Notes under the pieces: generated by a model
The model's input: only the letters and a program-made list of their open reading frames with translations
The model's database searches: none
Told to the model about the DNA's origin: nothing
In this document: positions 1 through 51,720 of the stretch, piece by piece
How positions within the stretch are numbered: position 1 is the stretch's first letter
How the letters are laid out: each line of letters starts with the position of its first letter
Made by a program: the position numbers and the translations under genes
Assembly: GCA_043228905.1 (NCBI GenBank)
Contig: JBHGNT010000004.1
Span: forward strand, 8,184,001 to 8,248,000
Source: Azolla caroliniana
Taxonomy: Eukaryota; Plantae; Polypodiophyta
DNA: 64,000 nt
Direction: 5' to 3'

Positions 1-99
1 ACTAGGCCAATAGGCGACCCGGTTACGGAGAGAGCCCAAAGACTTGCTGAACGGAGACGGCGGCGAGAGGCTTTTCAGCAAGCAGTGGAAGAAATACAA

Positions 100-2000
100 A
101 CGGATTGATCATTTTCCAAAGTGATCTGGAAAGTGGCGGAGGAGTCGCTTCATCTGCAACAAAACGCCTACCCGGACGAAGGAAGCAGCTTAAGCAGCCT
201 CTGGGAAGCGGAAACCCTTCTCTAGGCCTTGGCCAGAAGAGAAGGTGAATCCGAAGCATTTTCAGCACTGGAATCGGATTCGGAAGGGGGTTACAGCGCG
301 CATACGAATTATCGCAGCAGTAACGACACCCCAGGAGGACTGGAGGACGAGGAGTCAGATACCTTACTGACACCGGAACCAGAGTTGGTAGACCAAGAAC
401 CTCCGGCACTCGTCGTGGAGCAACCTCCGGAGACGGAAGTGCACTGGCAAAAACTTCCAACACCGGAAGCCGAGCCGGCAACACCAAAGGAAGACCGGCA
501 AAGACCTCAGACGCCGGCGGAACAACAGGAAAGACCACCGGCACCGCCTGGCTGCATACCGACACCGGACGACGATATGCCGTTCCAGTACTCCAAGTAT
601 CGGGATGACCCGGACGCGGAGGCTCATGTTCACGCGTTTGAACAAACATGGGAAGCGAACCATGTGTCACAACGGCTAACCGCGGCAGAAGAGGAACGAT
701 CCAAGATAGCCGAATTCGGTGTAACATTAGAAGGACCGGCCGCCAGATGGCACCGGACGCAGGATCGCAGCACCATTACCACCTTTGCGGACCTAAAAGA
801 CAAATTCTTGCACTTCTTCCAGAAGGAGGTGGATCAACAAGAAATGGTGGGCTTATTTTATACAATTCGGCAGGATCCCGGGGAGAGCATCCCGCAGTTT
901 GTAATCCGGTTTCAACGGATGCACAGCTAGCTTACTCGCGCACCTCCGAAGGAAGAAACGCGGGCTATATTTTTAGCCGCGCTCCGGGAACCTCTACGAA
1001 CGGTATGCACGGTCATTGACTTTCGCACAAGCACCGTCAACCAGGTCATCAACCGGGTTAGGGAAATGGAAAAAACGAGCTCTTGGCTAACAATGGGAGC
1101 CCTCCAACGAGCATTACCAACCGATGAGGATCTCCATTTCCGGCAAGCAATCCAATGCACGACCTGCTTGAATTCCGGACACTCGTCACTGGAGTGCACC
1201 ATGCGGACGCACTGCTTACTCTGCCAATCTACGAGCCACACGATGGACCGGTGCGAATATAACTTATTGAATCGGCAAGCTCCACCAGTCCGGCAAATCG
1301 AGCCACGTAGCAGTCGAGACGAAGAAGACGAACGCTGGCAATGAGAGGAGTGATATCGACCGGCACAAGATGTCCGATACGACAATCGGCGAGACAACTA
1401 CGACCGGTACAAGAGATACGACATGTACCGAGATTACAAAGGACGGTACGAGCATCACAACCGGGATCACTCCCCCGGGTATCACCAATGACGGGAAGAT
1501 TACGGGAGGTATGACGACCAACCCCGGCAAGGGTACCGCAACAAAAAGAACTTTAATAAAAAACGGCATTTCAAAAACGGGAGCCACCCACGTGAACCGG
1601 AAAAAGGCGCCTCAAGCAGCCAACCAGACTAGAGCCCCGCGGTTACCACAAGTCCTCCACCGGGTGCAGGAAACAATGCTGAATCCAGCAACACCCGGAA
1701 AGCATATTGCTATTACTGCTGGCAAGAAGGACATTATAGTAATCAATGTCTGGCAAAAATCTATGATAAGAGACCGACAGTAAATATGGTAGTCGCCGAA
1801 GTCGCAGACCTCCAGCAGGTCACCACAAGGTCGAAGGGGAAGACTACAAAATGGGAGACACAAGAGGCCATCCGGAAACAGGCAACGGAATGGGTGAAAA
1901 AGGCAAATGAGCGAAACGTAGCAGAACTCGCACAACAGAAGGAGAACACCGAAGAGCTCGCCGGCGGCAGTCAGTCCGAAAACGGGACGTGGCAGGTATT
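100..2000 (+). pseudogene. gag: gag of Gypsy A (disrupted)
   Basis: Retrotrans-gag-like core (LEGPAARW...DLKDKFLHFF, IRQDPGESIPQFVIRF) and zinc knuckles (CTTCLNSGHSSLEC, CLLCQSTSHTMDRC, CYYCWQEGHYSNQC); stops at ~928 and ~1342. Confidence 0.85.
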
Positions 2001-2160
2001 GCAGGAATGCCAGATCACGCTGCCGTTAGGACGACTCTTGCAGCTAGTACCAAGATTCACAGAAGGACTCAAGTCCGGCATGACGACAGGCGGAACACCA
2101 CCGGCTCTGGCATTCTTCTCAAATCCGGAAGAAGGACCGGTCGTGGTGGACACCAACAGT

Positions 2161-5100
2161 CCGGCAATTACGGCCATTGTGAAAGGGAAAGAACTCCCCG
2201 GCATGATAATAGACGGAGGCTCCGGCGTTAATGTAATCAGCCTCCGGACATGCGATGCTCTTGGAATCTGAGAGTGGGAGCCATGTCCGTTCTGGCTTCG
2301 AATGGCTGACACAAGCTCGGTACGACCGACAGGATTAATACGGAACTTGGAAGTAACCATCGGGGGCCACACATTCTGAATCTCAACCGTAGTTCTCCAG
2401 TTGCAGGCTCAAGGAGCGTACCCATTATTGTTGGGATGCCCTTGGTTAAAAACGGCACATATCAAGCAGAACTGGAGGAGGAATATGATTACGTTCCGGC
2501 GGGGAAAAGCGAAGGTACGGGTACCAACACAACAAAGGAAGGGCACCGGCAAGGATCTGACACCGTTATATGCGGAGTGTGTCAATATGCTGGAGGGATT
2601 AACAGACGTAGAAGAAGAGCAGTACTTGCTGGAGAACCCGAAGATTGTACCCCTATTCGAAATTGACGTCGCGGAAGCGGTATCACCCTACTTACTGCAA
2701 CCGGACGAAACCGAAGCGGAACCAGATAAAGAAGCAATCCGGGAGTTACGACATGCGTAGGAGGTGTTGGAAAGGGAAATGGCCGTATCCCAGCACGTAA
2801 AAGCGTCCCAATTAGAAGAGGTAAATCTAGGAACGGCGGAGGAGGCAAAACCGGTGCACATCGCCAAAGAAATGAATACAAAGAACAAAACGGCGATAAT
2901 TACACTCCTCAACGAGTTTCGCGACGTCTTTGCCTGGTCGTACGAGGATATGAGAGGCCTGGATCCTCATTTGTATCAGCACCAGATACATCTAAGCAAA
3001 GTCGCCAAGCCGGTGGCACAACGTCGGTACCGGATGAACCCAAACTACGCCGCCAAAGTCAAGGAGGAGATCGACAAATTATTGAGGGTCGGCTTTATCC
3101 GTCCCGTAAAGAAATCTACATGGCTGAGCCCGATTGTAGTCGTACCAAAAAAGAACGGCAAAATTAGAGTTTGTGTCGACTACCGGAAGTTCAATGCGTC
3201 AACGGTAACGGATGCATTTCCACTTCCGTTTACAGATGGAGTTTTGGATGCCGTCGCCGGCCATGAAGTCTACAGTTTCTTAGACAAATTCAGCGGGTAT
3301 AATCAGATCCGGATGCACCCTGAGGATCAAGAGAAAACGGCTTTCGTCACCAAATGGGGAGTGTTTGTTGCGGTGGTGATGATGTTCGGGCTGAAAATGG
3401 CACCAACAACATTCCAACGGATCATCATGGAGATCTTTGGCGAATACATACCGGCTTTTATGCAGGTGTTCCTTGACGACTTCGCCATCTGTAGTCGAGA
3501 AGAAGATCATTTGCAGCATCTCAGACTATGTCTAGAGAAGTGTAGGGCGTACCGGCTAAGCCTGAATCTAGCGAAGTGTGTATTTGGAGTGTTCAACGGA
3601 ACACTACTAGGGCATATAGTAAGCAAGGAAGGCATTGTCGTAGATCCGGACAAAGTGAAAGCAATCCGGGAAGCACTGGCACCGGCAACGGCAAAGGCAT
3701 TGAGCCGTTTCCTAGGACAAATCCGCTAGCATAGCCTTATGCTATGATATTTGGCAGACTTGGCTACACCTCTGCATACGGCAGGCAGTACATCGAACAC
3801 CGTTCCAATGGACCGACATCGAAGACAAGGCGTACTGGGGACTAAAGGTGTTATTGTCACAAGCACTGGTAGTGCAGCCTCCGGATTGGAGTAAAGAGTT
3901 TCATGTGTTCGTGGACGCTTCTGATATCGCAATCGGTAGCGCGCTCATGCAACTTACCGAGCCAAGGTGGTACCGGCCAATATACTATGCCAGCCGGAAG
4001 CTATCCCAAGCGGAACGAAATTATTCTACCACGGAAAGGGAGGCTTTAGGAATGATCTACAGTGTAACGAAATTCAAGCATTATCTATTGGGAAGAAAGT
4101 TCTCCTTCCATGTAGATCATTCGGTACTCCTCTACCTAGTATCCAAAGTGTCACTTACCGGTAAGCTAGTCGGTGGACTTTGTTGTTGCAAGAGTTCGAA
4201 TTCAAGATATTCCACCGACTCGGCATATAGCACGCAGTCGCAGATTATCTAAGCCGGTTAGATTCTGGGGAGACAGGTGACGGAGTACCGGACGAGTTTC
4301 TGGATGCAGAGCTTTTTCGAGTCACCACGGAAACGGCAACAGATGAAACGGTGGCACAAGAAGATAAGTGGCTAACTAATATGCACCAGTTTCAAAGTAC
4401 CGGATTGCCTCCGGAGGAGATGAACCGGGACGAGAGAAAACGCCTGGCGGTACAGAGCCGGTACTTCTGTTTATTACAGCACACGCTATACCACAAAGGT
4501 GTGGACGGTATCTGGCGACGAGCGGTGCGTAGCGACGAGAAGGAGGTAATACTACGGGAGGCACACTGCGGAGTCACCGGAGGCCATTATGCTGGAGATG
4601 CGACGGCAAGGAAAGTATGGCAAAGTGGCCTATGGTGGCCAACCACATTGAAAGATGCAGTCCGGTATGCGAAGGAGTGTGATCTATGCCAACGAATGGG
4701 TCAGCCAACGGAACAAGCTCGGATGCCACACCAACCAATCCTACCACTAGAACCATTCCAGAAATGGGGGTTGGATTTTGTCGGGCCATTTTAACCACCG
4801 GCAATGAGAACCGGCAACCGGTACGTGATCGTCGCGACGGATTACTGCACTAAGTGGGTGGAAGCGAAAGCCCTACGAGACAACACCACGGTGTCAACGA
4901 CGAAATTCTTATACGAATGCATTTGATGCCAGTACGGATGCCCCATAGAGCTGATAAGCGACCAAGGAGGGCACTTTCTTGGACAGGTGGTAGAAAGTTT
5001 GACGACGTTCTATGCGGTAGTACATAAACGAAGCACACCGTACTATCCGCAAGCAAATGGGTTAGCTGAGTCGACGAACAAAACGCTCTAGAATATCCTT

Positions 5101-5640
5101 CGGAAGATCGTCAATGAAAATCGGACAAATTGGGACACAAAGCTGCACAGTGCGCTCTGGGCTTACCGGACAGCGTACAAAACAAGCATCTAGACAACAC
5201 CGTTCCGGTTAGCATTCGGATTGGAGGCAGTCATGCCAGTCGAGTTCCAGGTACCAAGCTTACGGATTCAGATTCGAGAACGATTGAACGAAAAGGAATC
5301 GGAGGCAATTCAGTTAAAGGCTCTGTGCGAACTGGAAGAACACTGACTGGCGAGCATTATGCACCTGGAATTGGAACAACGGAGACGGAAAGCATTTGTA
5401 GATCGGCACCGGAAGGGAAACGAAAAAATGTTCGGGACCGGCAAGCTGGTACTCGTTTTCCAGACCCGGATGGGAAAAATGCCAGGTAAACTACGGTTTA
5501 GATGGACCGGACCGTACTGGATCACACGTGAGTTCAATGGGTCCTACCAGTTGGGTACACTTGCCAGAGAAGTGTTGGGCAAATGGGTCAACGGATTTAG
5601 ACTAAAACCATACAAAGGACCTATGCCTAAGAACCCATTT
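2161..5640 (+). pseudogene. pol: pol of Gypsy A (PR-RT-RH-INT), disrupted
   Basis: ORFs 1786..2271, 2401..2760, 2764..3729 (RT), 3848..4252 (RH), 4351..4794 (INT Zn finger/core), 5359..5835 (INT C-terminus, WTGPY). Confidence 0.93.
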
Positions 5641-6155
5641 GAACGAAAGGCCGCCACCGAATCAGACGCCGGCAGGCCAACCATAACGGCAACCGATGAA
5701 GACGACGACTGCCACCAAGCCAATAAGGAGGAGCATGAGCCGGCAACCGAGGAGAGTAGAACGAAGGCAAACCGTCAAGAGGCCGGCAAGTTGTACGCTT
5801 CGGGCAAGGGTCCGACAGGACCGGAGAAAAACTAACCACACAAGTAAGTTAAAAAAAAAAGAAAGAAAGAAAGAAAGAAAAGAGAATAAAGGAGTGAATC
5901 AAATAAATCATGGAAAGGAGTGGTGGACATTAAAGAGGCACGTCGAAAAGGTACGAGTAAAGAGGCATGTCGAAAAGGTACGAGGAGCTATGAATAGGAC
6001 ATTAAACCACCGCCACATGGCACGCAATGCTATTATAGTACACGACATTAAATCGTAGAGAGCTCCCACACAGAGAACCCCCTCCCTCAGAACTTTCTCT
6101 CTCACACTCTCCCCACCATCAAACCTCGCCAACGCTCTCCAACCTCGACGCAGAG

Positions 6156-7801
6156 ATGGACTGCCAAACACTGTCTGAAGCCACCAAGAAATGGTTACGG
6201 CAGCACGGTCTGGAGGGTTTCTTAACAATCATGGAGGTAGCGCCACACGGAGGCCGAGAAGATTATAAAAGAAATCAACACGGAGGTGATCACGGAGGAG
6301 GCGATCTGTGCGTTAATAGGCCTTCCGGAGGGAGGTATCTACACGATCGACAATCCTACTCCCGAGCAACTCATCAAATATTTCGGTGAGTACTCTCTAG
6401 CCAGCAAGGGCTATAGGACACAGGGCGACGAAGATATGCTATTCCGTGAAATTGCCCGTGTGCTCCACGAGTTCAGCCACGTGTACCCTCGACCCCCCAT
6501 CATGCCTCAGAGGAAAGGACGGCGATTGATATAGTAAGAGGAAAGGACGACAAGGCCGGAAAATATGGCATGCGGTGACACAATGGCTCACCCTGTTGGC
6601 GCCACCAGTCGAGCCCGTCCAAACCAAGAAGCGGGGAAGAGCAACGGACGGCACCCCGAAACCTGCTTCGAAACGGCAACAACTGTTGGCCTCCAAGGCC
6701 ACTAAGGGGAAGACTGCCGAAGCAGAGAAGGCGGCGAAGGAGTGCGCCAGCTGGAAGCGACCGACGGACACGCACGAGGAGACATCGGCACGGCCCTTGA
6801 AGAGCCCACTCCACCGACCGGGGCAGCAGGAAATGGACACCTTGGCGGCAAGAATGAATGTCGGGACTCAAGCGGAAGAAATGGAGGAAGAACCCACGCA
6901 ACACCTCCAGTGGAGGCCGGTGAAGAGCACCGCTGAATCAGCCGGGAAGCGTTCGGACCCACAGAAGGATGGAACGCCTGCAACTCACGCTGAGCAACCC
7001 ACACCAAGGGAGGCACCGGAACCGGTTCAGATGGAACCGGTCACAGAAGTCCCGGCACAACAGGCACCACCGGGAAGCCCCGTCACCCAAGAGCCGGAGA
7101 TACAAAGGCTAACCGTCCCAGCCGGCCAAGAACAAGCAAACAAGGGGCGACTAACCGAAACACCCTCAGAGCCGGAACGGCAAAGTGGTCAGCTGGCAGA
7201 ACCAGAAGCGTAGCTTGACGCAGAACGACGGAACTCCATTTGCTTAGGGCGGACTTGAAAACCGGCAAAAGGAGGGCGACGACTGCTATATGCTAACCTC
7301 GGAGGACTTCACCACCATCAGGGATGAGCTGGCGGAAGATTTCACAGCCCTGGCGGATGAACAATTGGTGCAGGTCCGGCAGCTCGTAGCTCAACTGGAC
7401 GATGATCGGCTGGAGGCTCAAATCCAATTCGAAAGCTATGAGCGGTCCCGGCTTCGGGAAGAAAAAGCGCGAAAGGCGGCAACGGTCAACCTTAGTGATG
7501 AGGAATCGTTGCCGGGGCAAAGACCGGAGGGGGAATAGGCCGGGGTCAGTCAGCCATAGACAACTCCGACGGAGGAACCAACGACAGAAACGGAGGTGCC
7601 ACAACCACAAACGGAGCAGCAGCCACAACCACAAATGGAACAACAGCAGCAACAACAGATTCCCGACGAGCCATTGGAAATTTTTGAGCAAAGCATTCTG
7701 GATATTTTGGACGAAGCGTAAAAGGGCCGGATAGTGGGTTCGATGTACAAGGTACTGTCCCACGAGCATGCCATGTGTTACCGGCTAGCGAAGAAGGCTT
7801 A
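6156..7801 (+). pseudogene. extra ORF (eORF) downstream of pol in Gypsy A
   Basis: Collinear sense ORF pieces 6156..6389, 6286..6534, 6575..7213, 7290..7538 and beyond, broken by frameshifts and CAG>TAG-type stops. N-terminus has ITEEAICALIGLP (resembles plant mobile domain/transposon eORF motifs), followed by P/E/Q-rich and coiled-coil-like parts. Confidence 0.65.
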
Positions 7802-8238
7802 AGGAGGTCCAAACTAGAGTGTGAAAGGAATAGTTATTCAGGAACTGTTGTAATTAGTAGTCTTAATATATACATATTATTATATAAGAAGATGTGGATG
7901 GACGGACCGGAATCGGTATGCCGATCCGGATCCGGAACGATTCTGTAAAGGTGTCGTTTGGCACCGTTTTGTATTTCGCACCGGAGGCCTATATAAAGGC
8001 CCGGATACAATGTAATCAAGAGCGGATAATTAATAAAGCGTATTGTCTTAATCTTCAAGTGTTGATTACCGTTCTATATTTATTGTTATATCTTACACGT
8101 GTTAATTACGGATGGCTAAGTAATCGATTAAGGTCTAATTAAGCGTTGTGTCGTAAGTCATTTTGCCGTACCACCCTTTGGTGACGTGTCTTAAGTGGAC
8201 ACCCTGTGTTAGGCTGTTGTCCGGCCCTAGCAATAACA
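7776..8238 (+). repeat. 3' LTR of Gypsy A (~463 bp)
   Basis: TGTTA...TAACA ends, TATA box (CCTATATAAAGG ~7988), homology to LTRs at 15920..16383(-) and 50752..51283(-). Boundaries uncertain by about 2 bp. Confidence 0.75.
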
Positions 8239-9786
8239 CAAATGTCTCTCTAATTGCGTCCACATGAAATATGGTAGACTTGGAGCCCATACTACTGATG
8301 CATGCATGAGGGAAGGGATCACTAATGAGTTGAAGAGCCATCCCTTAGTCCGTGGCTCTTGAAAGTGTGCCTGGTGGCATTGTCTCTCTAAGAGTGGGAG
8401 GTATGCATACCCTCTCGTTAGCCTATCTTTGGCTGCATGAGTCATCGAGAATTTACCTGAGCGAGCACTAAAAGTGACTCCCAAGTATACATATGATCCA
8501 ACTACCTCAACTAGTTTATGAGAGCGAATTAGGTGACATTTACTCCTAACTCGGGACGATGTATGAAAGATAAGGAATTTAGTTTTCTCTAGATTCACTA
8601 CCAGTCCTTGTTGTGTACAAAAGTTATCTAGGGCATTAAGATGCTTTTGTAGGTCGTGTTCCGACTCCGAGAGCAAGACAATATCGTCTGCGTAGAGTAA
8701 GAGACTAACTTGCGTATTCCCAATAGCTACTCCCTTGCCTCCCTTACGAGCAATAAAATTAGTGATCTCCTCAATGTAGATCCCAAAAAGAGTTGGTGAT
8801 AGGGGGCAACCCTGTTTTACACCAATGGTGCTAGTGAAACAATCGAAGGCCACTTGGGCATCTTACGCACCCAGAGACTTGCTCATATAGGGCATAAATG
8901 GCCCAGATAATGTTATTTGGTATCTCCAAGCTCTTAAGTCTATCAAACAACTTCTCCCTAGGAACAATGTCAAAGGCTTTGCAAAAGTTCACAAAGCAAC
9001 AATATAGTTTCTTCTTATGAGCCTTTGTTTAGTCAATTAAGCACCTAAGTGTGAAGATATGGTCAATAGTGGAGAAGGCTCGTCTAAAGCCAGCATGCTC
9101 AGGTGCTCGAAGAGGAAAGACTTAATGTTTCCGTATAAACGTTGAGCTCCGCTTCCATTACCGCACCATATGGTTTAGCTTCCATTACGACGTGTCATCT
9201 TGCACATCTCTTTTAAAGCCTGTACTGAGGAAATAGTACCACTAAGTCGCGATACTTTAAGTTTTCTATACAACTCTCTACAATCCTCGTCATACCATTT
9301 GTTCTGTGGCATAGGCCCTATTCTACTATGATTGGAGTGTTTTGTGTATGGGAAGCTACTAATTGCTCATGAGTGAAGGATGTGTGCGAGTTCTGTAATG
9401 AGGTTCTCTCAAGGCAAGGAAGAATCAAAAGAGGAGAGATGAGCTTGAACATGTCGTGAGTAGATGTCAACGAGCTCATTCATGAAATGTATTATGGTGT
9501 GATGGTTTAGTTGACTAGAGCTAGTGGTGTGGGAGGTGTCGCATTTTAGCTCAAAGTATAGGAAGCTATGGTCTGCACCAATGGGGCATGGGGCCACCCG
9601 AAAGGAGTTAACCATGTGGGTAGCTTCAGGGCTTCCTATTAGGTAATCAATTGTGCTTTCCCCTCCTCCATGTGGGAAACATGTGAGCGCTTTCGTGCCC
9701 AACCACTTGGCTAAGCCATTATATATGATCATCTGGTGTCAGCTTCCAAGTTCAAGCAGATGATGGCCAAAGCTTGTGGTGTCCGT
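8239..9786 (-). mobile_element. LINE ORF2 fragment (end of endonuclease + RT), RTE-X/L2/CR1-like
   Basis: GVKQGCPLSPTLFGIYIE, LLYADDIVLL, VNLEKTK, YVYLGV; endonuclease end STIDYLI...GADH. Cut at its 3' side by Gypsy A. Confidence 0.9.
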
Positions 9787-10547
9787 TGTCGCGAAGTTTC
9801 GCGGGTACGTGTAGAAGTCCAGGCGGGACCACGGGGGTCTTGGACTAGGGAATGACGGAGCGTAGGAAGTCGTGCTTCACCATTTCTGGGGCATCCCAGA
9901 AGCACACCGGAAGCAATCGAAGGGAGAGAGAGAGAGAGAGAACAAGCACGCAACATTGACTCTCACACACGCGCACACACCAACAGAGACACGAATATGC
10001 ACAACCAAATGTATATGTATTTACAAGACAACGAGATTCAACACCGACTTTGAGCCGGACCTAGGTAGCATAGTATACAACTGTTGTCTATTGCCAAGCC
10101 GCCGGTCGGGGAGCTCTCGGGCTTGTCGCGCCGAGCGGGGTCTTGCACAGAGAACAGGGTAGAAAACAGAAACACTAGATGCCAAGGCTCGACACATAAA
10201 ACGACGAAGAAGAAGCAGAGGAGAACAAGAAGAAACCCTACAACCAGAGAAAAGAAAGAGGAAGAGGGAACGTTTCTTCCTCTAACGGTATACCCTACTA
10301 CCAAAAATGGGCAACCCCTTCACCAAGGGCGCTCCCTTCCTTTTATAGAACAAGGAGAGGGATCCGTAGCATCGTGGGATAAATCCCTTATTACATGGGA
10401 TTCTTGTCCCGACTTGATTATTCTTTGGCGCCATAAAGGCACCCTCGTTATTCACACTAAATGTACAAGGGTGAGCGCACATGTTGCACCCCGCCGATGT
10501 AGCCAATATTTCCCGGTTTCCGCCTCTGGCCGAAATTCTTCACGACA
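9787..10547 (-). repeat. 3' LTR of element B
   Basis: Near-identical to 14395..15143; preceded on the minus strand by purine-rich GGTGGGGGCGGA (PPT, ~10548..10561). Confidence 0.95.
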
Positions 10548-10919
10548 TCCGCCCCCACCAAAGCGCACGTCCACTGGTACCTGCCAAATCCGGTGAAGGG
10601 TGAGAGATTTCAGCCGGTGAGAAACCGGTCTTCCATAATCCGCATCCTGGCTTGCTGCCTGTTTGAATCGTCGGCTTCAGTTCTTCCTTCGCGCTTATCG
10701 CCCCGTAGGCTCGTTCGACCCGTCAATTGGTTCTTCGTCGCGATCTCCGTAGTACGCGTACTTCCGCTGGCCCTTGTTCGGCCGTATGCACGCTCGGCTC
10801 TCCGCCATATGCCCGATGTCCTCCGCTTGAGGAACGCCCGTAGTGGCCCGCCTGGCCTCCGTCGATCGTTCGTGTGGTCCTGATTGTGATCCTGCATTGT
10901 TTCCCGCTGCCTTCGTCCC

Positions 10920-13010
10920 CTCGCCGCCACCTTCCTTCTCCTTGGTCTTACGTCGCCACGTCGGCTCGGACCGCCAAGGTCTTCGGAACGGTGTGGAGGA
11001 TCATTCTCCGGTCTTCTACGCGCGACCACCGAACCATGCAACCCATTCTTCGCGCTCGCCTTTCTGCTTCGACACCTCCGTGTGCCGCGTTCCGCTTTCT
11101 TTGTTCGGCACCGCCCGTGCCGAACACCGTCCTGTAGTCACGCTTCGATCCGGCCCGCGATGGCCACTTGCGAGACTCTTGTTCCGTCCCAGGTGTGCCT
11201 TTCTAGCCCGACACACCTCCTCGTGTTTGCCCCTATCGGCTCCTTCCGAAACCGTAACCGGCCGGTAAGGGTTTTGCACTTCGTCCGCCCCCGTGATACA
11301 GACTCCCGATCCGTTATCTCGTGTCGTCGGGTCCCGTTCCCTACCACCACCGTCCTTCTCCCTAGGTCTCACGCCGACTCCCGTTAGCCGGCCGCCGGAG
11401 TCTCCAGATCGATGTGAGGGTCCCATAGGACCGGACTCCGTTTCTCTGCTTGCCGAAATTTGGGTGTCTTTTGTCGGAGTCCTTCGTGACTCTCCTCGTG
11501 TCTTCCGCGTGGCCGCGTTCCAGCTTCGTGTTGCCAGGTCCCGTTTCCCGCTGCCACCAACCTTCTCTCTCGGTCTCATGTTGCCACGTTGGCCGAACTA
11601 CCGGAGTCTCTGGTTCGGTGTGGGGATCCCATAGGAACGGACTTCCTTATGCCCACTGACCTTGCCGGAAGATCTGAGATGGTCTGTAGCTGCCTCACCG
11701 GCCTCATACCTCCTTGCCGTTCATTGCTTCCTGTCGTCCGATCACGTTCTCATGCCACCATCGTCCATCTCCCTAGGTCTCACATCGGCTCTCGCTAGAC
11801 TACCACCGGAGTCTCCGGATCGGTGTGAGTGTCTTCGTGGGACTTTCTCTTTCACCGTTTTCCGCCCTTGTCCCCTCGCTGCCACCATCAGTATCTTCGT
11901 CTTACGTCGACCGCGTTGCCGACTGCCGAAGTCTCTAGATCCGATGTGAAGGATCCTCCTTGGGCCTCCGATTTGTCTTCCCGACCCTATCCTGGGTCGT
12001 CCTTCTCCGCATGGCGAGAGGGCGGTTTGCTCTACACCCTCTCCCGTGGTACCGACGTACCGATTTCCTTCCTTCGGATTGGTTATCCGGAAACACATCC
12101 TCCCTGTTATCGTCCAAGTCTGTTCGCATTGGCCGTTCTCGTTTCCTGCCGCCACCGTCCTTCTCTCTAGGTCTCACGTTGGCCAAATTGCCGGAGTCTC
12201 TGGATCGGTGTGAGGATCCCGTAGGATTGGTTGCTTTCATCCTCACTCACCTGTGCTTCTTTTGAACTCTTCGCCCTCCTTCTCGCGTACCCGCCTCCAT
12301 CTCCCATCTCTCCAAGTCTCACGTCGGCGCTGAGCTGCCGGAGTCTCCGAATAAGACGTGGTGTTTCCGTCCCGTAATGATTTGCGGACGCTCGTTCGGG
12401 GTACCGCTCCCCAAGCACGTTCGGTGAGAAGCATCTGGACTTCGATCGATCAAGTGCCGCTTGCACTTGATTCTCCAATGTCCGGAGTTTCGGGCAGCGG
12501 TCTCAGAAACCTGCCAGTCTCTCTTCGCAACCTCGATCTCTAGCTTCCCGATTTGCGGCCTTCGCCTAGCCGGCTTGTGTCCTCATGTAAAAGAGGGAGA
12601 TTTGTTTTGCACCCTCTTCCGTGCCGGCACTATTGTACCGAACCGAGCCCTACCGATCGGGCTGTATAGCCCGTCCTTGGTCGTTCGCGCCTTGGGCCGG
12701 TTTCGGTCAAGTCATACACATCCGGATCACGCTCCATCCGAATCGAAAAGCCGATCTTTCCGTGCTACCTCTGTCCTTGGCCTCCTCGCAGGCCATTTCC
12801 CATCCCTCTTCGCTGGCATCGTGCCAGGACTCCTGGTCGGCGCCTTCCTTCTCTCCGATCTCATGTCGGCAAACGGGCTCGACCATCAGAGTCTCCGGAA
12901 TCCGCGTGGACGGCTCTTCTCTACACCCGACCTTGTCCTCGGTCAGCAATTCTCCGCAAGTGGAGAGGGCATCTTGCTCATCACCCTCTCCCGTGGTACC
13001 GTCGTACCCT
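10920..13010 (-). repeat. degenerate repeat array inside element B (about 8 copies of an ~80-bp core)
   Basis: Recurrent CCACCGTCCTTCTCCCTAGGTCTCACGTCGG...CCGGAGTCTCCGGATCGGTGTGAG-like units at ~10923, 11344, 11553, 11753, 11881, 12148, 12291 and 12840. Confidence 0.75.
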
Positions 13011-14357
13011 CCCTTGGCCTCTGCCTGGGCCTTGTCCACCTCGTCCGGAAGGCCGACTAGCCCTGGGTCTCCGGAATCCGAGTGCGTGCCGGATCTTTCT
13101 TCTTCTTCGACCATCACCTTTAGAGCCTTGTACACTTCCCGGACTAGGGTCTCGACATCAAGCTTCCCCGATTCTTCTCGTCGCGTGCCCACTTCCTACT
13201 ATGATGAAGTGCCGTCGCGCGTCATCTTCCCCTTTCCGCTCGCGGACTGCTCCTCGTCCAACCGCTGGCACACTCGTTCAACTTCCAACCAGTCCTCGGT
13301 AAGGCCATTCGCTCCGTCGTCATCCTCGAGCTCAATTTCGATGGCCTCCCGTTCCGCTCGGTCGATCAACCTAACGAAGAACAGGACCTTTGTTCCCGCT
13401 CTGGGAGCCAAGTGAAGTGTCGCTCGAACTCCTTGAACGCCTTCATCGCGCCCCACTGAGTCTTTGCCGACGATATCCATTGGTCGAAGTCACGCTGTCG
13501 CGTTGTTACGTGCGTGCATGTAGAAGGGGCGGGACCACGGGGGTCTCGGACTAGGGAGTAGAGGAGAAAGAATAAGATATGTTTGGAAGCTTAGGTCAAG
13601 AGGAGAAGAAGAAAGAATAAGATCACCACATAGAAGGAGAGATCGACAGAGGTAAGATACTCAACAAGATATATTAAAACAAACGAATGATTACAACAAT
13701 GGTGGCCGCATGGGCCGCACCAAACGACTATGAGAAAACCCTAACCGAAGACGAATAAGGAAACCCTAAACGAAACCCTAACCCTAAAATAGTAAGAACT
13801 CTAGACTAAGTGGTATACCTCTCATACGCAAAATAGGCAACCCTTCATAAGTGACCCCTCCCTTCCTTTTATAGCCCAAGGAGGGAGGGACCTTACAATG
13901 TGGGACAAAATTTCCCCTCTTCTTTCTACACACCATTTCCTAGTATACATGTGCACATGTTGCACACCACCGATTTGCCCATTCCACCCCGGTTTCACAC
14001 TATTGCCGGAAATCTTCCCCGGCCTTTCGGCCGCCCTCCATATGCCTTCAGGAGCGCCTCTTTAAAGGCCTCCCACGAACTATGAGCTTCACGGAGCTCC
14101 TTTACTACCGCATGCATCCGGACAGGTACGACCCGACAAAAGAACTCCAGCCTCAACGCCTCGTCTACGCCACGCACTTCCATTTTCGCGTTGTAGGCTT
14201 CCAAGTAAAATGGGACCTTGTCCCCATTGAAACGGCCGACTCTTTCGACCACTCGCTCAATAGATTGTTGTGTTGCTTCTCGCCTCATCACCACTTGTGC
14301 AGACTCCAACACCATTTCAGCCACCATCTCCGCGAGGTCATCATCTTCCGACTCCAT
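12707..14357 (-). pseudogene. gag: gag-like ORF of element B, interrupted by a solo LTR
   Basis: MESEDDDLAEMV...GRFNGDKVPFYLEAYNA...KEALLKAYG starts just after the PBS and continues in 13199..13495 and 12707..13192. Confidence 0.7.
13496..14017 (-). repeat. solo LTR of a B-related family inserted in the gag of element B
   Basis: Begins TGTCGCG, shares GGGACCACGGGGGTCT.GGACTAGGGA and CCCTTCCTTTTATAG with the B LTRs; terminal ACGACA missing at the right end. Confidence 0.8.
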
Positions 14358-14372
14358 CCTCCCTTGCCGCCT

Positions 14373-14390
14373 TTCACGTCGAGTTCACCA
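14373..14390 (-). promoter_or_regulatory. primer-binding site of element B, complementary to tRNA-Trp
   Basis: Plus strand reads TTCACGTCGAGTTCACCA, 4 nt from the LTR; matches the plant tRNA-Trp 3' end as I recall it (TTCACGTCGGGTTCACCA) with one mismatch. Confidence 0.8.
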
Positions 14391-14394
14391 AAGA

Positions 14395-15143
14395 TGTCGC
14401 GAAGTTTCGCGGGTACGTCTAGAATTCCAGGTGGGACCACGGGGGTCTTGGACTAGGGAGTGACAGAGCGTAGGAAGTCGTGCTTCACCATTTCCGGGGC
14501 ATCCCAAAAGTACACCGGAAGCAACCGAAGGGAGAGAGAGAGAGAGAGAACAAGCACACAACATTGACTCTCACACACATCAACAGAGACACGAATATGC
14601 ACAACCAAATGTATATGTATTTACAAGACAACGAGATTCAACACCGACTTCGAGCCGGACCTAGGTAGCATAGTATACAACTATTGTCTATTGCCAAGCC
14701 GCCGGTTGGGGAGCTCTCGGGCTTGTCGCGCCGAGCGGGGTCTTGCACAGAGAACAGGGCAGAAAACAGAAACACTAGATGCCAAGGCTCGACACATAAA
14801 ACAATGAAGAAGAAGCAGAGGAAAACAAGAAGAAACCCTACAACCAGAGAAAAGAAAGAGGAAGAGGGAACGTTTCTTCCTCTAACGGTATACCCTACTA
14901 CCAAAAATGGGCAACCCCTTCACCAAGGGCGCTCCCTTCCTTTTATAGAACTAGGAGAGGGATCCGTAGCATCGTGGGATAAATCCCTTATTACATGGGA
15001 TTCTTGTCTCGACTTGATTACTCTTCGGCGCTATAAAGGCGCCCTCGTTATTCACACTAAATGTACAAGGGTGCACATGCTGCACCCCGCCGATGTAGCC
15101 AATATTTCCCGGTTTTCGCCTCTGGCCGAAATTCTTCACGACA
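14395..15143 (-). repeat. 5' LTR of element B
   Basis: Direct repeat of 9787..10547, followed on the minus strand by the PBS and gag. Confidence 0.95.
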
Positions 15144-15546: not shown

Positions 15547-16383
15547 GGGGTGTCGTGACTAGATCAGCAATTGGAGTGGATGCTCCATTTGTTGTCCGAC
15601 TACGACTCGAATGCTGAGACCACTTCTGAATCTGGTGTTTGTTGCTATCGTCTACAATAGTGACTCGGCTTCGAGTAAACTAGTAAGGTTGTTTTCTCAT
15701 CGGATTTTCGTTGGTTTTTTACCCAGACTATTTCCTCTGCGACCTGCCATAGCACTCTGGGAAAAGATCGATCCTACCGAATCTCTTCAATCGCGCTCTT
15801 CCTGCCTCCGTAGTTGTTCGGCTTATCTTCTCGCTCGCTCGGCCACTAGGTCGTTCGTCTACGTAGACATCCATTCCCTGTTGTTCACTTCTCTATGCAG
15901 GAATCGTGGTCGCCAAAATTGTGGTTATCCTTGGCTGGATTTGGCCACAAACACAAGGTGTCCTTCTGGAACACTTCTCCGAAGGGTGGTTAGGGTATGA
16001 ATGTCATCCGGTGTCTATCCTATTCTGATTCCGATCCGGATTGCTAATACACAACTGATTTCGTATAACACGCGTAAGATTTAAGCGCAGAACGGCAAGT
16101 ACACCAAGACACAATCGAATTAAGAAAAAAGGTTAGTCTTGTATTACTTCTATTAATCATTTACATTGATTCTGGATCTTTTTATAGCCATCCAATAGGG
16201 ATTACAAAATGGTGCCTTACCGGCTACCGGCTTTCAATCGGTGCGGATCCGGATCAGTACAACTATTTGGATCTGTTCAGTCCTATTCTATTACTTACTA
16301 ATAATTATGCTGCAAATTACATTGTGCTGCTCCGACTCGTCCCCGTCCACATTACTCCCTCAGGACATACATTGGGGCCAACA
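15542..16383 (-). mobile_element. 5' end of Gypsy A' (A lineage): 5' LTR 15920..16383, tRNA-Arg-type PBS, start of gag
   Basis: LTR TGTTGG...CCACA homologous to 7776..8238; PBS TGGCGACCAC (~15906..15915); 15542..15800 aligns to positions ~100..340 of element A. Confidence 0.85.
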
Positions 16384-18062: not shown

Positions 18063-18640
18063 TGTTGGGAATATGTACCTCCAGTGGGAGGAGGAACTGA
18101 CTGTCCAGAAGTTACTGACAATCGATGACTACGAGGAGTCAACTGCTCGGACCAATGAGAGCCGACAGTCGAAGAGTCGAAAAACAGTGAGTCAATTGTT
18201 TGATAGTTCGACTATTATTATTATTATAGCAATAATAATAATGATACGTAGCAGAGGCTACATTTGTAAATAGCCCATACATTGTATAAGTATAAATACA
18301 CTTAGGGCAAAATGAGCGGGTGTGTGTAGAACAGAAGTAGCGTTAGAGCGTGAGGAGTGTGTAGAGAGATAGAGAGAGAGTGTGGTGCCATAGCTGCGTG
18401 CTTAACAGCAGACGCCAAGAGCCCTATGTGGTTGATACACTCGAAAGAGTGTTGTAAGATACCCTCTGTTGTATATCCACCTTATAGTGAAGTTTTGTTC
18501 TCCGTGCTTTTCTCCCGTTTTAGGGTTTCCACGTAAATCTCTATGTACTATTGTTTATCTTTTCTCTCTCTTGCATTCTGGTGTGATTTGTATTTCAGCA
18601 CAGTTCGTTTATTGTGATTCGACTGAACGATTTCTCAACA
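18063..18640 (+). repeat. 5' LTR of Copia D
   Basis: TGTTGGG...CTCAACA, direct repeat of 29071..29641. Confidence 0.95.
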
Positions 18641-20707
18641 ATCTGGTATGAGAGCTTGAGGTGCAAGCATGGAAGGAGGTGTGAGCGGTTTCCCAGGTAT
18701 GATAGTTCTCAACTCACTGAACTATGCAGACCGGAGATCAAGATGGAAGACCTTCTTATAGTTAATGACATGTACGAGCCAATTGACAGAGCAGAAATAC
18801 CCAGGGGGGTATTGGAGTCGGACTGGAAGCTTATGAATAGAAAGGTGGTGGCCACTATCCGACAATGCGTCGATGTAAGTGTCCTTCAGCATGTGGCAAA
18901 CGACACAAATGCCCATGAAATGTTGCAGAAGCTGTCAGGTCTGTATGAGAGGAAGAACATGCTCAATAAAATCTCGTTGGTGAGAAACATCATACGGCTG
19001 AAATACAGATACAATGAGAGCATCGTCGAACACATCAGCACATTCATGGGGTATGTAAATCAACTTGTTGCGACCAAGTTTCCCTTAGATGATGCAATGC
19101 AGGCCATCCTGCTGATGTGCACACTGCCGAATAATTGGGAAAACCTGGTGGTTACTCTCAGCACCTCATGTCAAGAAGAGAACTTGTCTTTGTAGACGGT
19201 GAAGACAAGCATTCTAAATGAGGAGGCAAGGAGGAAAGACAAAGGATTCCTGTCACAATCGGAGTCGAATCTGACTCAACATATGGACAGAGGAAGAGAC
19301 CGACGAAGAAGAAGTCCACAACGAACGGAAAAATCCCACGCCAGATCAAAGTCCAGAGGTAAGCCCGTGTGCTTTTATTGTGGAAAGCCTGGACACTTCC
19401 ATAAGGACTGTCGATACTTAAAGAAAGATAAGCGTGTCGGAAATAATGTCGAACCCAGGAAGATTCCTGATGAGAAGAACACTTCGGCCATTGCAACGAG
19501 CAATGAAGAACTCCTGTTCATTTGTGAACAGATGAGTGCAAATCTTGCAAGTGAAGATTGCACGTGGGTGATTGATTTCGGGGCATCGTTCCACATCACT
19601 CCGTCTAGAGAGTATTTCTTGACTTACATAGTCGGGGATCATGGCTATGTAAAGATGGGTGACAGTGGAGAGTGCAAGGTAACCGGAGTCGGAAGTGTTG
19701 GCTTAATGACGTCGACAAGGTGTCGACTAACGTTGAAGGATGTTCGACACGTCCCCGATATCAGATTGAATCTGATATTGACCAGAAGGTTAGATGACAA
19801 AGGCTATAGTGGTAGCTTTCGAAATGGCAAGTGGAAGTTCTGCCGAGGGAATCTTATAGTGGCCTGAGTACAGAAAGAAGGCACATTATATATGATGCAT
19901 GCCCGACTGTGCAAATCGGAAGTAAATGTGGTAGCCGACTCGGTAGGTTAGATATGGCATAAGAGGCTAGGCCACATGAGTGAGAAGGGAATGCACCTAT
20001 TAGCTGACCAAAAACTTCTACCAAAACTCAAGGGAGTGCACCTGGAGAATTGTATCGACTGCTTAGCCGGAAAGCAGAATAGGACAGCATTCCACGCAAG
20101 ACCACCAAGAAGAAGAGAGGTTGCACTGGAACTAGTACACACGGACGTGTGCTATGTTGATGCTCCATCGCATCGAGGTGGAGAGTACTTTGTGACATTC
20201 ATTGACGACCATAGTCGGAAGACATGGGCCTTTGTACTGAAGACAAAGGATCAAGTACTATCGGTTTTCAAGGAATTCCAGGCAAGAGCCGAAATAGAGT
20301 CGGGTCGGAAGTTGAAGGTTGTCTGAACTGACAACGGTGGTGAGTACAGAGGGTAGTTCGAGGAATAGTACTAGTGCCAAGGTATTCGGATCGAATACAC
20401 AATGCCAAAGACCCCAGAGTTGAATGGGCTTGCAGAGAGGATGAATCAGGCGATCATGGAGAGAGTAAGGAGCATGCTCTCTCATGCAAAACTGCCGAAA
20501 TCCTATTGGGCTGAGGCGATGTACACAATTGTTTATTTGATCAACAGGTTTCCCTCAGTACCATTGAAGGGTGATGTCCCACAAAGGGTGTGCACAGGGA
20601 AGGATGTCTCCTACCAGCATCTGAGGGTGTTCGGATGTCTAGCATACATGCATGTACCAAAAGATCAGAGGTCAAAGCTCTACAACAAGTCGAAAGCATG
20701 CATATTC

Positions 20708-20985
20708 TAACAGGAACACACGCTCCCGATGAACAACACTCGGCCACAACCGAGCTTAGAATCAAAACACAGAAAAACGGGGAATGGATGCACGACACAA
20801 AAAAAGGAGAGAAGAGTACACAGGATGTTTAACGTGGAAAACCCTGAGAGGGAAAAACCACGGGAGTCCACAGACTCCAAACTATCACTATATCACAATG
20901 ATTACAACAGTCAGCTCACGGAGGCAACGACCTCGTGCTCACGATCTTCGCCACAGGCAGCGGTTACAACAGAGGCAACGACCTC

Positions 20986-21029
<44 letters not shown>

Positions 21030-21427
21030 CACTGTTACGCGCTCTCTAGTCTTGCGCCAACAAGAATGACAACAACATTACACTAAGTTTGCCCTAAGTC
21101 ATATTTATACTAATATGACTTTTCGGCTATTTACAAATATAGCCCCGATGGACTCTCAGGAAACATATTTATAAATATGTCCCTTCATCCGGTGAGCACT
21201 TCTCACCGGGCCTTCACCATCCGGCTCTTGCCGGGTACTCCTCATTCGGTTCTCACCGGGTCTTCCGTAGCCGGGTACTCTTCATCCGGTTCTCACCGGG
21301 TCTTCCGTAGCCGGGTACTCTTCATCCGGCGCTTGCCAGGTACACCACATCTGGTTTCGGCCTCGACCGAGATTCTCATCAGCACTGTTCTTCTCACTTC
21401 CCATCCGGAGGGACCTGTTTCCTAACA
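20708..21427 (-). repeat. Copia solo LTR inserted in the integrase region of D
   Basis: 5-bp TSD TATTC (20703..20707, 21428..21432); removal restores KACIFMGYS; homologous to LTR 61343..61873; contains (TC)n and a short internal tandem repeat. Confidence 0.9.
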
Positions 21428-21555
21428 TATTCATGGGATACTCGGAAGATGAATTCATCTACAGGCTATGGGACCTAGTCGACAAGAAGGTAGTGAGAAG
21501 TTGGGATGTAGTCTTTCTAGAAGACAAGACAATTGAAGACAGGAAGCAATAGAAG

Positions 21556-22764
21556 TTGGAATCGACTCCCCAATCAACCCCGACTACCATCGACTTAAGG
21601 CCAAGTGAGTCGTCACCGACAGATGTAAGGAGACAACTGGCCAACAGAGCCGAATCTGACTCGGTCGACTCGAGACCAACTGACTATGAGTTAGAGTCGG
21701 CAGAGTTGCAAGGGTCAATTGATGAATATGAGTTGGAATTACCCAACCTAGAGAGGCCGATTGACGAGCAGAATCCCGAGCAGAGTGAAGAGTTGGAAGA
21801 GACATCGGAAAGTAAGCCAACAACGAGTGGAAGAAGATACCCACTTAGAGAAAGGAAAGCATCGACTACATACGCCAATCAATACATCCTCTTGACTGAT
21901 GAAGGTGAACCGGAGTGCTACGAAGAAGCCATTGCTGATGAGCACAGAGAGAAATGGCTAAGCGTGATGCAAGATGAGATGGAACCCTTGCACGAGAACT
22001 ACACCTATGACCTAGTAGAGTTGTTGAAAGGTAAAAGAGCCCTCAGGAATAAGTGGGTCTACAAGGTGAAGACTGGAGAAGCCGACAATGAGCCCAGGTA
22101 TAAAGCCCGCATAGTGGTGAAAGGTTTCCAACAGAAGAAGGGCGTCGACTTTGACGAAATATTCGCACCAGTCGTTAAGATGACATCCATCCGAACTGTT
22201 CTGAGCATAGCGGCCAACATGGACCTGGAGATCGAACAGTTGGATGTTAAAACCACATTTCTACACGGGGAGCTTGAAGAAGAAATCTATATGCAGCAAC
22301 CCGAAGGCTTTGAGAAGAAAGGGAAAGAGAATCTGGTGTGTCGACTAAAGAAAAGCTTGTACGGTCTAAAACAAGCTCCACGCCAATGGTACAAGAAGTT
22401 TGAGTCCTTCATGATGGAACACCGGTTCCAAAAAACACAGGCCGATCACTATGTGTTCGTCAAAAGGTACGAAGAAGGAGACTTCTTGATTCTCTTGCTA
22501 TATGTCGACAACATGTTGATAGTCGGTCAAGATACAAGGAAGATTGGAAGCTTGAAGAAAGCTCTCGGCAAATCATTTGCCATGAAAGACCTTGGACCGG
22601 CGAAACAGATCCTAGGAATGCATATAGTTCGAGACAGAACTCAAAAGGTGCTATGGTTGTCACAACAGAAGTATGTGACGAAGATCCTAGAGAGATTTAA
22701 CATGTCAGATGCAAAGCCGGTCGGCTCAGCGTTGCCGACAAATTGCAGATTGAATGCGAAGTAG
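21556..22764 (+). pseudogene. pol: reverse transcriptase of Copia D
   Basis: KARIVVKGFQQ, QLDVKTTFLHG, LYGLKQAPRQW, LLYVDNML, MKDLG. Confidence 0.92.
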
Positions 22765-23132
22765 TGCCCAAAAGGGGAGAAGGAAAAGGCCAAGATGAGG
22801 AAGGTACCATATGCCTCAGCCGTTAGCAATCTAATGTATGCTATGGTCTGTACGAGACCAGAAATAGCATTTGTTGTAGGAGCAGTAAGCTGATATTTGA
22901 GTAATTCAAGGAGAGAACACTAGGCAGCGCTGAAGTGGATACTCAAGTACTTAAAGGGCACCTTGGGGTTGTGCCTAAGGTATGGTGTCGAAAAACCTGT
23001 GCTAGAAAGTTTTACCGATTTGGACATGTCGGGAGATGTCGACTCGAGCCGATCCACGTTAGGGTAAGTGATGACCTATGCAGGGGGAGCAGTGTCATGA
23101 CAGTCACAACTGCAAAAGTGTTTAGCCTTGTC

Positions 23133-23231
23133 TGTAGGGAATGAACAAGGCCGTCAGTGCGGAAGAGATCACACAGTATGAATCTGTGAGGAAGAAACAC
23201 CTTCGTATGAGAGAGGCAAGAACAAAATACG

Positions 23232-23275
<44 letters not shown>

Positions 23276-23473
23276 CACAAAGAATATATCTATATTCATA
23301 AAGGGGCAACCGTTACAACAATGAACAACCAACCTTTAGAAAAGGTTACAAAGTCACTTTATATAGTGACTCACTTAGGGCAACTGCCCTTTATGTTATT
23401 TACAGAAATAGCCCGAACTTGGGCTCTTTAAGAGGATAGTGTAAATACGTCCATTATACATTTGTATTCAACA
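23133..23473 (-). repeat. 3' LTR of Copia E
   Basis: Differs from 28387..28709 by only a handful of substitutions and (GA)n length. Confidence 0.95.
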
Positions 23474-28386: not shown

Positions 28387-28709
28387 TGTAGGGAATGAAC
28401 AAGGCCGTCAGTGCGGAAGAGATCACACAGTATGAATCTGTGAGGAAGAAACACCTTCATATGAGAGAGGCAAGAACAAAATACGTACACAGAGAGAGAG
28501 AGAGAGAGAGGCACAAAGAATATATCTATATTCATAAAGGGGCAACCGTTACAACAATGAACAACCAACCTTTAGAAAAGGTTACAAAGTCACTTTATAT
28601 AGTGACTCACTTAGGGCAACTGCCCTTTATGTTATTTACAGAAATAGCCCGAACTTGGGCTCTCTAAGAGGATAGTGTGAATACGTCCATTATACATTTG
28701 TATTCGACA
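28387..28709 (-). repeat. 5' LTR of Copia E
   Basis: Direct repeat of 23133..23473, adjacent to the iMet-type PBS. Confidence 0.95.
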
Positions 28710-29070
28710 TTGTTGACTACAAAGGCAGAGTATATGGCAGCGGTAGAGGCCGGCAAAGAGCTAATTTGGATGAGAAATTTTCTCAACAAATTAGGGATGA
28801 AGCAAAAGGAGTTCTTGTTTCACTATGATAGCCAAAGCGCCATACACCTTGCCAAGAATGTTGCATACCACTCCCGGACCAAGCACATACAGAGAAGGTA
28901 TCATTGGTTACAAGAGAGAGTCGAAGAAGAAGAGTTTTCTCTTGTGAAGATCCATACTGACGACAATGGATCTGACATGCTGACGAAGAACCTACCTATG
29001 GATAGACTCAGAGTCTTTCGACAGAAGACAGGACTGACTGACTTCCTCCCACAAGAGTGAAGGGGGAGTT

Positions 29071-50254: not shown

Positions 50255-51720
50255 TGATGACCTTCTTCTTGTCTTCATCAACATCCCTTTTTGGCAACCC
50301 CTGAAGGTCTTCTGGCTATCCTTGCTTGATAGAATAGATTCGAGATTTGAGTCCGATTGAAATTCTTTAGCCAGCAACTCCCTACAAGATCACCTTCTAC
50401 GAAGAGAAACACATGAAAAGTCTGCACTCCACTTTTCTAAATCACTGTTAAAAGAACCCAACCAACTACACCTTGCTTTCTATGATTGTAGCCTCTCGGA
50501 GTGAGACTCTTTCATTGAACCAACCATACTTGTGCTTCATCCGGTTAGGCGATAATTGAATAGGTCATTCGATGTTGTCCATCCGTTCGTCGTAACCACT
50601 CGAAGCAAAGTCTGCCCAAGGATCAACCCCCATCCGTGCCTCACTTGACTAGATGATATTTGGGAAGACCAGTTGGATTTGCCCCTCCCGTCGTTGTAGT
50701 CATCCGAAGCAGGATTGACCTAGAAAAAGACAAATAATATGTGGTCGCCACTGTTATTGGCTTGGATAACACGGTGTCGAATATCTGGTCCTTTGTCTAT
50801 TTGATTCAAGGTCTTGTGTTCGGGGGAAAGGAGCCAATATCGTTTGGAATTTTTCGGGAACTCCGAATTGTATGGACTTAAGTGTGAATCGAATAGAGAA
50901 TGAATGTGTGATTGTGGAGATGGCCAAGTGGCTACAACTGACTAGTTATGTGACATTACACAGAACGTGGAAGACTCAACACAAAGAAGATACGACACAG
51001 TTTCTTACTTAGAGTATTAGGGCAAAACAGAAATTCTATTACAAGCGCAATGATACATTAATTTCAATTAACCTTTTACAAGCTTCCCATGGCCCTTTTA
51101 TAGAGCTCATGGACGATTATGACTGCGTGTGAACCGTTATTGCGTATTCAATACTTTACTATTTTTCTACTCACTATTTTCTACTCTCGTTTCTTTATTC
51201 TTTCGCTCAGTCCTACTCACTACTAATTAGACTCGTAGCCATTTTCCGCCCCTTCCACAGTTGGTCATCCAAACCAGCCAACACATGGCATGCATGTGGG
51301 ACAGTGCATGCATGGTGCAAATGCCTCCAGAATCTGCGCTATCTCTGCGGAGTGACGTGCCATGAGTGCCCTATAGTCCTTCGTGAGATTTTCCTGAATT
51401 GTGTTGATGCTTTCTTCGTCGAGTTTGTTGAACCCGCGACGTTCTTTCCTTGGATTTTCCTGGTTCGCCTGAAATATCTGGAGTTCGGTAGCTTGTGTGG
51501 ACCAGTCGTCCCAACCTCGTTGTAGTCTGTCTGATATCATTTGGAGGGCACTTTCTTTTCATGTTTCGAGCAACATTCGGATCCTCTCCTCCGACATTTT
51601 TGTCTTCCCTCGCATGTGCTCGATGGTCGCTTCGAGTTGCGTTATTTTGCTTGTAGCGCGTCCCGATTGTAATGCGTACCGGTCTTGGATGAGGCAGAGA
51701 GCAAAGCAACAAATATTCAT
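50255..51720 (-). mobile_element. A-lineage Gypsy fragment: eORF end, LTR (50752..51283), PBS, 5' internal
   Basis: LTR TGTTGG...CAATAACA, PBS TGGCGACCACA (50740..50750), pre-LTR motif shared with element A, coiled-coil-like ORF 51265..51540. Confidence 0.75.

Follow-up and report, generated by a model that had tools for sequence, protein, structure and literature searches.

A tRNA-Arg(UCU) copy in place of the polypurine tract suggests tRNA priming of both DNA strands in a Ty3/gypsy lineage

Retroviruses and LTR retrotransposons are generally taken to prime their first DNA strand with a tRNA and their second strand with a polypurine tract (PPT). Here we describe a Ty3/gypsy lineage of Azolla caroliniana that has no PPT and carries in its place a copy of the 3' end of tRNA-Arg(UCU); host tRNA-Arg(UCU) probably anneals at this position to the newly made minus strand and serves as primer for plus-strand synthesis. 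The genomic evidence makes it likely that a successful clade of LTR elements in a non-seed plant has dropped the PPT, that host tRNAs prime both strands, the second from an antisense primer-binding site (PBS) with a three-way junction at tRNA position 58, and that second primers left unremoved have been fossilised. The motif itself is a real, high-copy feature, and the proposed mechanism of LTR-retrotransposon replication is well supported at the genomic level.

The window, that is, the whole 64,000-nucleotide stretch analysed, begins within element A (Table 1), which has the paired LTRs, target-site duplication, Gag-PR-RT-RH-IN order and tRNA-type PBS of a Ty3/gypsy element. The two LTRs (463 bp each) differ at 17 positions, of which 13 are C-to-T or G-to-A changes; the 5' LTR is followed by a 7-nt spacer and a 13-nt PBS matching tRNA-Arg(UCG), both located before the window. 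The paired LTRs and the CAAAT at both ends fix the start of the 3' LTR at 7776, and gag-pol lies on the same strand as the LTRs and the motif. At this confirmed boundary the PPT is missing, as the initial annotation had stated. The motif that occupies its place has the same sense as the tRNA and consists of tRNA nt 49-58, a hairpin insert and tRNA nt 59-76 with one C missing; a spacer of 2 nt separates it from the LTR. The minus strand of 7757..7773 is predicted to be a second PBS, and the TG spacer is predicted to be the overhang at the linear cDNA's left end.

Table 1. Positions of element A, element B and control elements (window coordinates, except for the 5' LTR of element A).
Feature	Position	Strand	Remarks
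5' LTR, element A	C4:8183480-8183942		shortly before window start; LTR pairing
gag-pol (Gag, PR, RT, RNase H, integrase), element A	1..5835	+	several stops and one frameshift
ORF2, element A, degenerate extra 3' sense ORF	6141..7721	+	stop 7719-7721
tRNA-Arg(UCU) nt 49-58 copy (T-stem 5' strand plus T loop)	7734..7743	+	
13-nt insert between tRNA positions 58 and 59	7744..7756	+	compensatory stem variants
4-bp hairpin within insert, GTAC-AAG-GTAC	7745-7755	+	
tRNA-Arg(UCU) nt 59-76 copy including CCA	7757..7773	+	one C fewer, two G-to-A changes
2-nt TG spacer	7774..7775	+	in three of three left-end tRNA fossils
3' LTR, element A	7776..8238	+	463 bp; paired LTR and target duplication
Target-site duplication CAAAT, element A	8239..8243	+	flanks element at both ends
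LTR, element B	50752..51283	-	motif upstream, PBS-like sequence downstream
tRNA-3'-end motif, element B	51286..51302	-	nt 49-58 part missing
PBS-like TGGCGACCAC after element B LTR	50750-50741	-	
Control LTR elements with canonical PPT	9787-15143, 18063-29641, 23133-28709, 52140-57324		

The sequences quoted for the two elements proved accurate: positions 7754-7779 and the complement of 51280-51305 are identical at 24 of 26 positions, and the LTR bodies of A and B can barely be aligned (BLAST gives nothing better than E=0.1). The tRNA-Arg(UCU) 3' end given in the initial annotation was also correct: host tRNA-Arg(UCU) genes end GTGGGTTCGAGTCCCACCGGGCGTG, and tRNA-Arg(UCU) is the best match to the motif, with an alignment score of 15 vs. 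9 (53 tRNA ends of 15 types, an incomplete host set). The placement of CCA 2 nt before the LTR holds for most junctions rather than for all: the spacer is TG in 205 of 217 junctions, AG in 5, TATTG in 3 and of another kind in 4. The claim that two upstream ORFs read the motif in different frames stands for element B, where an ORF2 remnant enters the motif, and falls for element A, where the 'VLSHEHAMC' frame lies 3' of the ORF2 stop (7719-7721); because the stop precedes it, the motif of element A is non-coding, and a peptide constraint is rejected.

The motif is abundant. The form present in the window has 105 exact genomic matches, and a form with G at tRNA position 71, GCGTGCCA, has 1,341, with none in either case for the reversed control. 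The G form is thus about 13 times commoner, which makes the window copies likely decayed versions, and their G-to-A differences look like post-insertion CpG decay; a reading of these differences as proof of wobble pairing is rejected, because CpG/CHG decay yields identical changes. In a sample chosen without reference to the motif (the first 30 of 497 matches to the ORF2 end), the motif was found at the LTR in 27 loci, and the remaining three break off within it. None of the 27 complete junctions has a PPT, whereas all four control elements of the window have one; these four LTR pairs have G-rich PPTs, with purine runs of 5-10 nt within the last 20 nt. In a second sample, chosen by reverse-transcriptase (RT) similarity (20 loci out of 122 RT matches, 10 kb each), the motif occurred within the 10 kb at 15 loci. 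It is common to 15 LTR clusters among 60 loci and is present also in sister families with an Arg(UCU) PBS, one of which has the AG spacer; of a set of 36 fetched 10-kb stretches, 7 reached the 5' LTR. The motif also occurs in metagenome contigs, in at least 122 stretches; among the 80 listed, the LTRs of many resemble the LTR set used here at only 70-85%. The motif pattern had no match in viral contigs, and a search of sequencing runs listed no RNA dataset. In short, intact copies yielded no PPT, conservation did not trace to a common-frame peptide, and a host tRNA matches the motif better than chance. Three related elements with short LTRs and no coding match to the lineage between them (L117, L137, L141) have retained an Arg(UCU) PBS together with the 3' motif, as would be expected if both are needed in cis. 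One further candidate bearer (L128, RT 36%) was set aside, its RT sitting between two pieces of ORF2 and being taken as a nested element.

The RT-RNase H region aligns to the Ty3 RT (PDB 4ol8, E 8.5e-72). An unbroken relative encodes a single gag-pol of 1,955 aa followed by a 3' ORF2 of 993 aa; a Pfam scan of the two found a single RNase H region, no chromodomain, and no second or archaeal-type RNase H of the kind that marks Tat elements. The 993-aa ORF2 following gag-pol also sets the lineage apart from Phygy/Selgy elements, which are short and have a polyprotein filling almost the whole internal region. ORF2 matches no Pfam family, and its N-terminal part gives only weak Atlas leads (ATHILA ORF-1, plant transposon domains); the ATHILA ORF-1 domain itself (PF03078, present in 16% of Athila) has no Pfam match and a weak Atlas lead at 0.85. 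The C-terminal half of the 993-aa ORF2 at L106:477-3458 (-) is charged and repetitive. An RT tree with 62 rows groups all 38 rows of the lineage in a single clade (support 100/99, bootstrap not fully settled) among proteins of the fern Adiantum and the liverwort Riccia, relatives that point to a non-seed land plant as the likely host; the motif lies downstream in 30 of the 38 and is absent from the fetched DNA of the other 8. The anatomy of the elements is Athila-like, a likeness of features rather than of REXdb placement. As described in two accounts (Neumann et al. 2019, PMC6317226; ATHILAfinder, 10.64898/2026.03.20.713144), the non-chromovirus Athila/OTA elements share the lack of a chromodomain and second RNase H (Pfam), the 3' sense ORF, the 5-bp target duplication, and a non-Met tRNA PBS, with a short AT-rich spacer between it and the LTR. 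According to the same accounts, Brassicaceae Athila differ in having a conserved PPT-3' LTR junction (97%), a tRNA-Asn/Asp PBS and LTRs of 1-2 kb, where the lineage described here has an Arg PBS, LTRs of 0.33-0.53 kb and a tRNA copy for the PPT.

Folding predicts that tRNA nt 49-76 pair with the minus strand of the motif as a three-way duplex in which one C forms a bulge and the insert is extruded as a loop at position 58, the site of the methylated A58 of tRNAs. The predicted duplex is stronger for Arg(UCU) than for any other tRNA of the incomplete set used (-37 vs. -21.6 kcal/mol, RNA-RNA parameters). In 143 of 217 junctions every pair of the insert hairpin is Watson-Crick, six types of stem being represented, and the stem covaries: 82% of cells are paired vs. 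69% after shuffling, and double changes number 22 vs. 8.7, values reached in none of 500 shuffles (42 rows picked for variety, kinship ignored; a +3 slide gives 67% paired). Position 59 of the tRNA is G, T or A across subfamilies, indicating that pairing there is not strict. The T-arm-like cis pairing proposed in the initial annotation is not borne out, in that the T stem is not maintained: G53 is changed to A in 66 of 174 junction variants, and one subfamily (L018) keeps three of five pairs.

The observations that bear most directly on the identity of the primer are tRNA fossils at the left ends of LTRs. Three independent loci have tRNA-type sequence, CCA, TG and a forward LTR in succession, and two of the three adjoin 5' LTRs whose own PBS matches another tRNA, Arg(UCG). 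The fossils include the extra C that is missing from the element motifs, and CCA is encoded in none of 13 tRNA-Arg(UCU) gene loci. With tRNA-type sequence and a CCA that the genes do not encode, it is the mature tRNA itself that is joined to the LTR left end. The fossil at C2:12.01 Mb comprises about 56 nt of tRNA plus CCA and TG, followed by the 5' LTR, an Arg(UCG) PBS and gag, and is one event present as three local copies; no bridging piece was found for its junction among the contig pieces listed from four runs (short contigs, 868 further pieces). The fossil at C9:12739701 has about 65 nt of tRNA before a forward LTR, with relatives that bear the motif and a mostly Arg(UCG)-type PBS, and a 130-nt contig from an independent sequencing run spans its LTR-TG-CCA-tRNA junction. 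The fossil at C20:881279 corresponds exactly to nt 59-76, followed by the 5' LTR, PBS and gag, and differs from the 3' motif of the same element by the extra C and at a single base, where it agrees with a variant of the host gene. A pattern for any tRNA at CCA-TG-LTR junctions gave seven matches, five Arg(UCU) and two non-tRNA, and no other tRNA. The TG spacer is missing before 5' LTRs that bear a target duplication.

Several candidates were not counted among the three. A fourth locus (C13) gave no clear orientation; two loci with tRNA, CCA, TG and TGT in succession (L148, L193) proved to be right-end/PBS junctions of a reverse-oriented LTR; and TGG-CCA-TG between two LTRs (L413) could also have arisen by deletion at a 2-nt microhomology.

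Right-end fossils serve as a positive control, being remains of the first-strand primer. Of 12 genomic matches to Arg(UCU) plus CCA, nine are at LTR right ends and three at a left end (one event, locally triplicated); the six matches to Arg(UCG) comprise three genes and three right-end fossils. Among the matches listed, all CCA-bearing tRNA copies but two adjoin an identifiable LTR end, the exceptions being L192, which has no relative among the fetched loci, and L196, which ends at a contig edge. Where the family was checked, the right-end tRNA is the one that the PBS predicts: Arg(UCG) on A-type elements (L154, L157, L412) and Arg(UCU) on L103. At no fewer than 12 LTR right ends (L093, L094, L098-L104, L154, L155, L157) a mature tRNA has been copied past position 58, two of them at full length; in this lineage, failure to remove the primer appears to be frequent enough for fossils to form. 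Extra full or partial LTRs lie head to tail before 5' LTRs at L412 (C20:5156348), L413 (C489:21430), L194 and L103, with PBS or tRNA remnants at the joint, and look like captured strong-stop DNA. Primer-to-LTR spacers (L409 +4463, L405 -5541 and PBS junctions of several families) measure 2-5 nt on the left and about 1-11 nt on the right. At either end they mostly begin CA or CT after the LTR terminal AACA, suggesting that integrase trims overhangs of varied length.

According to the hypothesis that tRNAs prime both strands, the minus strand would start at the ordinary PBS from tRNA-Arg(UCG), or from Arg(UCU) in sister families, as the PBS matches and right-end fossils indicate. After strand transfer, as in the standard model, RT would copy U3, spacer and motif, and RNase H would clear the RNA. 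tRNA nt 59-76, and probably nt 49-58 as well, would then pair with the exposed DNA, with the C bulged and the hairpin looped at A58, as folding predicts; RT would extend the CCA of the tRNA into spacer-U3-R-U5, RNase H would take off the tRNA, and integrase would trim the spacer. Where removal failed, the minus strand would copy the tRNA, leaving it as DNA at the LTR left end, as in the fossils. Of 38 RNase H segments, 33, 34 and 37 have the acidic motifs D, E and D, respectively. Copies of primers that were not removed are likewise reported at cDNA (2-LTR) junctions of HIV-1 (PMC5618025). Counted against tRNA priming are the wholly genomic nature of the evidence and the number of left-end events, three vs. 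about 1,450 motif copies. Similar fossils could also arise, with no routine priming, if homology drove a template switch onto free tRNA; with random end-jumps onto free tRNA, Arg(UCG) would be expected at left ends, where none was seen among these small numbers.

The best surviving alternative, which we nevertheless consider unlikely, is that the element's own RNA is the primer: a GC-rich, tRNA-derived segment ending in CCA would survive RNase H as a non-purine 'PPT', possibly as a folded tRNA mimic, and the left-end fossils would be template switches onto the homologous tRNA. Such a primer would need no new step except an altered RNase H specificity, and would accord with the covariation of the insert hairpin; the retention of only CCA-TG before the 5' LTR at L413 is compatible with either primer. 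However, it leaves unexplained why the motif has stayed identical to a single tRNA in subfamilies whose LTRs cannot be aligned, the T stem that would form in cis is often broken, and the fossils before 5' LTRs are tRNA-type, that at C20 ending exactly at nt 59. The initial annotation had offered dual-tRNA priming and a tRNA-mimic primer side by side; left-end fossils that are tRNA-type, with extra C and CCA, favour the former over the mimic.

It is very unlikely that the motif has another role, such as an RNA panhandle with the PBS, a packaging or dimer signal, or a target of tRNA fragments, with the plus strand started from a purine patch elsewhere. The motif is complementary to the PBS in the Arg(UCU)-PBS families, and short purine runs occur 40-70 nt upstream; however, the A-type PBS is Arg(UCG), with only about 4 bp complementary to the motif, and the upstream runs vary, from 3 to 14 nt with one of 29. 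A start at such a run would place the cDNA end at least about 45 nt outside the LTR, yet 5' LTRs start TGTT right after the target duplication, and tRNA fossils ending CCA-TG would not be predicted. An artefact or coding constraint, whether through a misplaced LTR boundary, the PBS of an element on the opposite strand or conservation of a peptide, has a negligible chance of being correct: the minus-strand reading does resemble an ordinary LTR-PBS junction, and some matches are true PBSs (L193, L148), but the orientation is fixed by the LTR pair, the target duplication and a gag-pol on the same strand, and the motif lies 3' of the ORF2 stop; the LTR pair, the target duplication and the stop position refute it.

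Known systems resemble tRNA priming of both strands in part. In canonical replication, as covered by reports on Ty3 and HIV-1 (PMC5371799, PMC5618025), the minus strand is tRNA-primed, the primer-LTR spacer is short, and unremoved primers can be copied into cDNA ends; the plus strand, in contrast, starts from an element-encoded PPT, where the present lineage has none and likely uses a second tRNA acting in trans. The bipartite PBS of Ty3 (PMC5371799) likewise places a tRNA-related segment close to the element 3' end; that segment, however, is found within U3, where the RNA is the complement of the tRNA, and serves minus-strand priming, whereas the motif here has the sense of the tRNA, is located beyond the LTR, and often corresponds to a tRNA other than that of the PBS. 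Helenus and Cassandra TRIMs, as portrayed in PMC10886601, also carry small-RNA-derived sequence (tRNA or 5S), but inside the LTR as a promoter and with the PPT retained. A full-text literature search, outside whose scope most subscription papers fall, returned no report of tRNA-primed plus strands.

If plus strands are tRNA-primed, a natural lineage of more than 1,400 copies relying on tRNA for either end would make it clear that the PPT is replaceable, and questions of RNase H primer selection and removal would become testable with short oligonucleotides. Both strands would be tied to host tRNA supply and to tRNA-fragment silencing, and annotation tools based on the PPT could overlook or mis-orient such elements; left-end tRNA fossils offer a purely genomic signature to seek in other species.

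ARAGORN found no tRNA in the 64-kb window; elsewhere in the genome tandem tRNA gene arrays (L033-L041, L050-L052, L070-L075, L081-L089) contain Lys, Ile, Leu and Arg(UCU) genes, with many degenerate Arg(UCU) copies. At 51283-50741 (-), the site of the element B LTR, and at L010, an LTR stands between the 3' motif and a PBS, an arrangement like that of tandem elements with a shared LTR. A third member of the lineage, at window positions 15800-16290 (-), is truncated and comprises an LTR, a PBS of Arg(UCG) type (at 15915) and the beginning of gag. A LINE-type RT fragment (8227-8862, -) adjoins the target duplication of element A, which appears to have inserted inside it.
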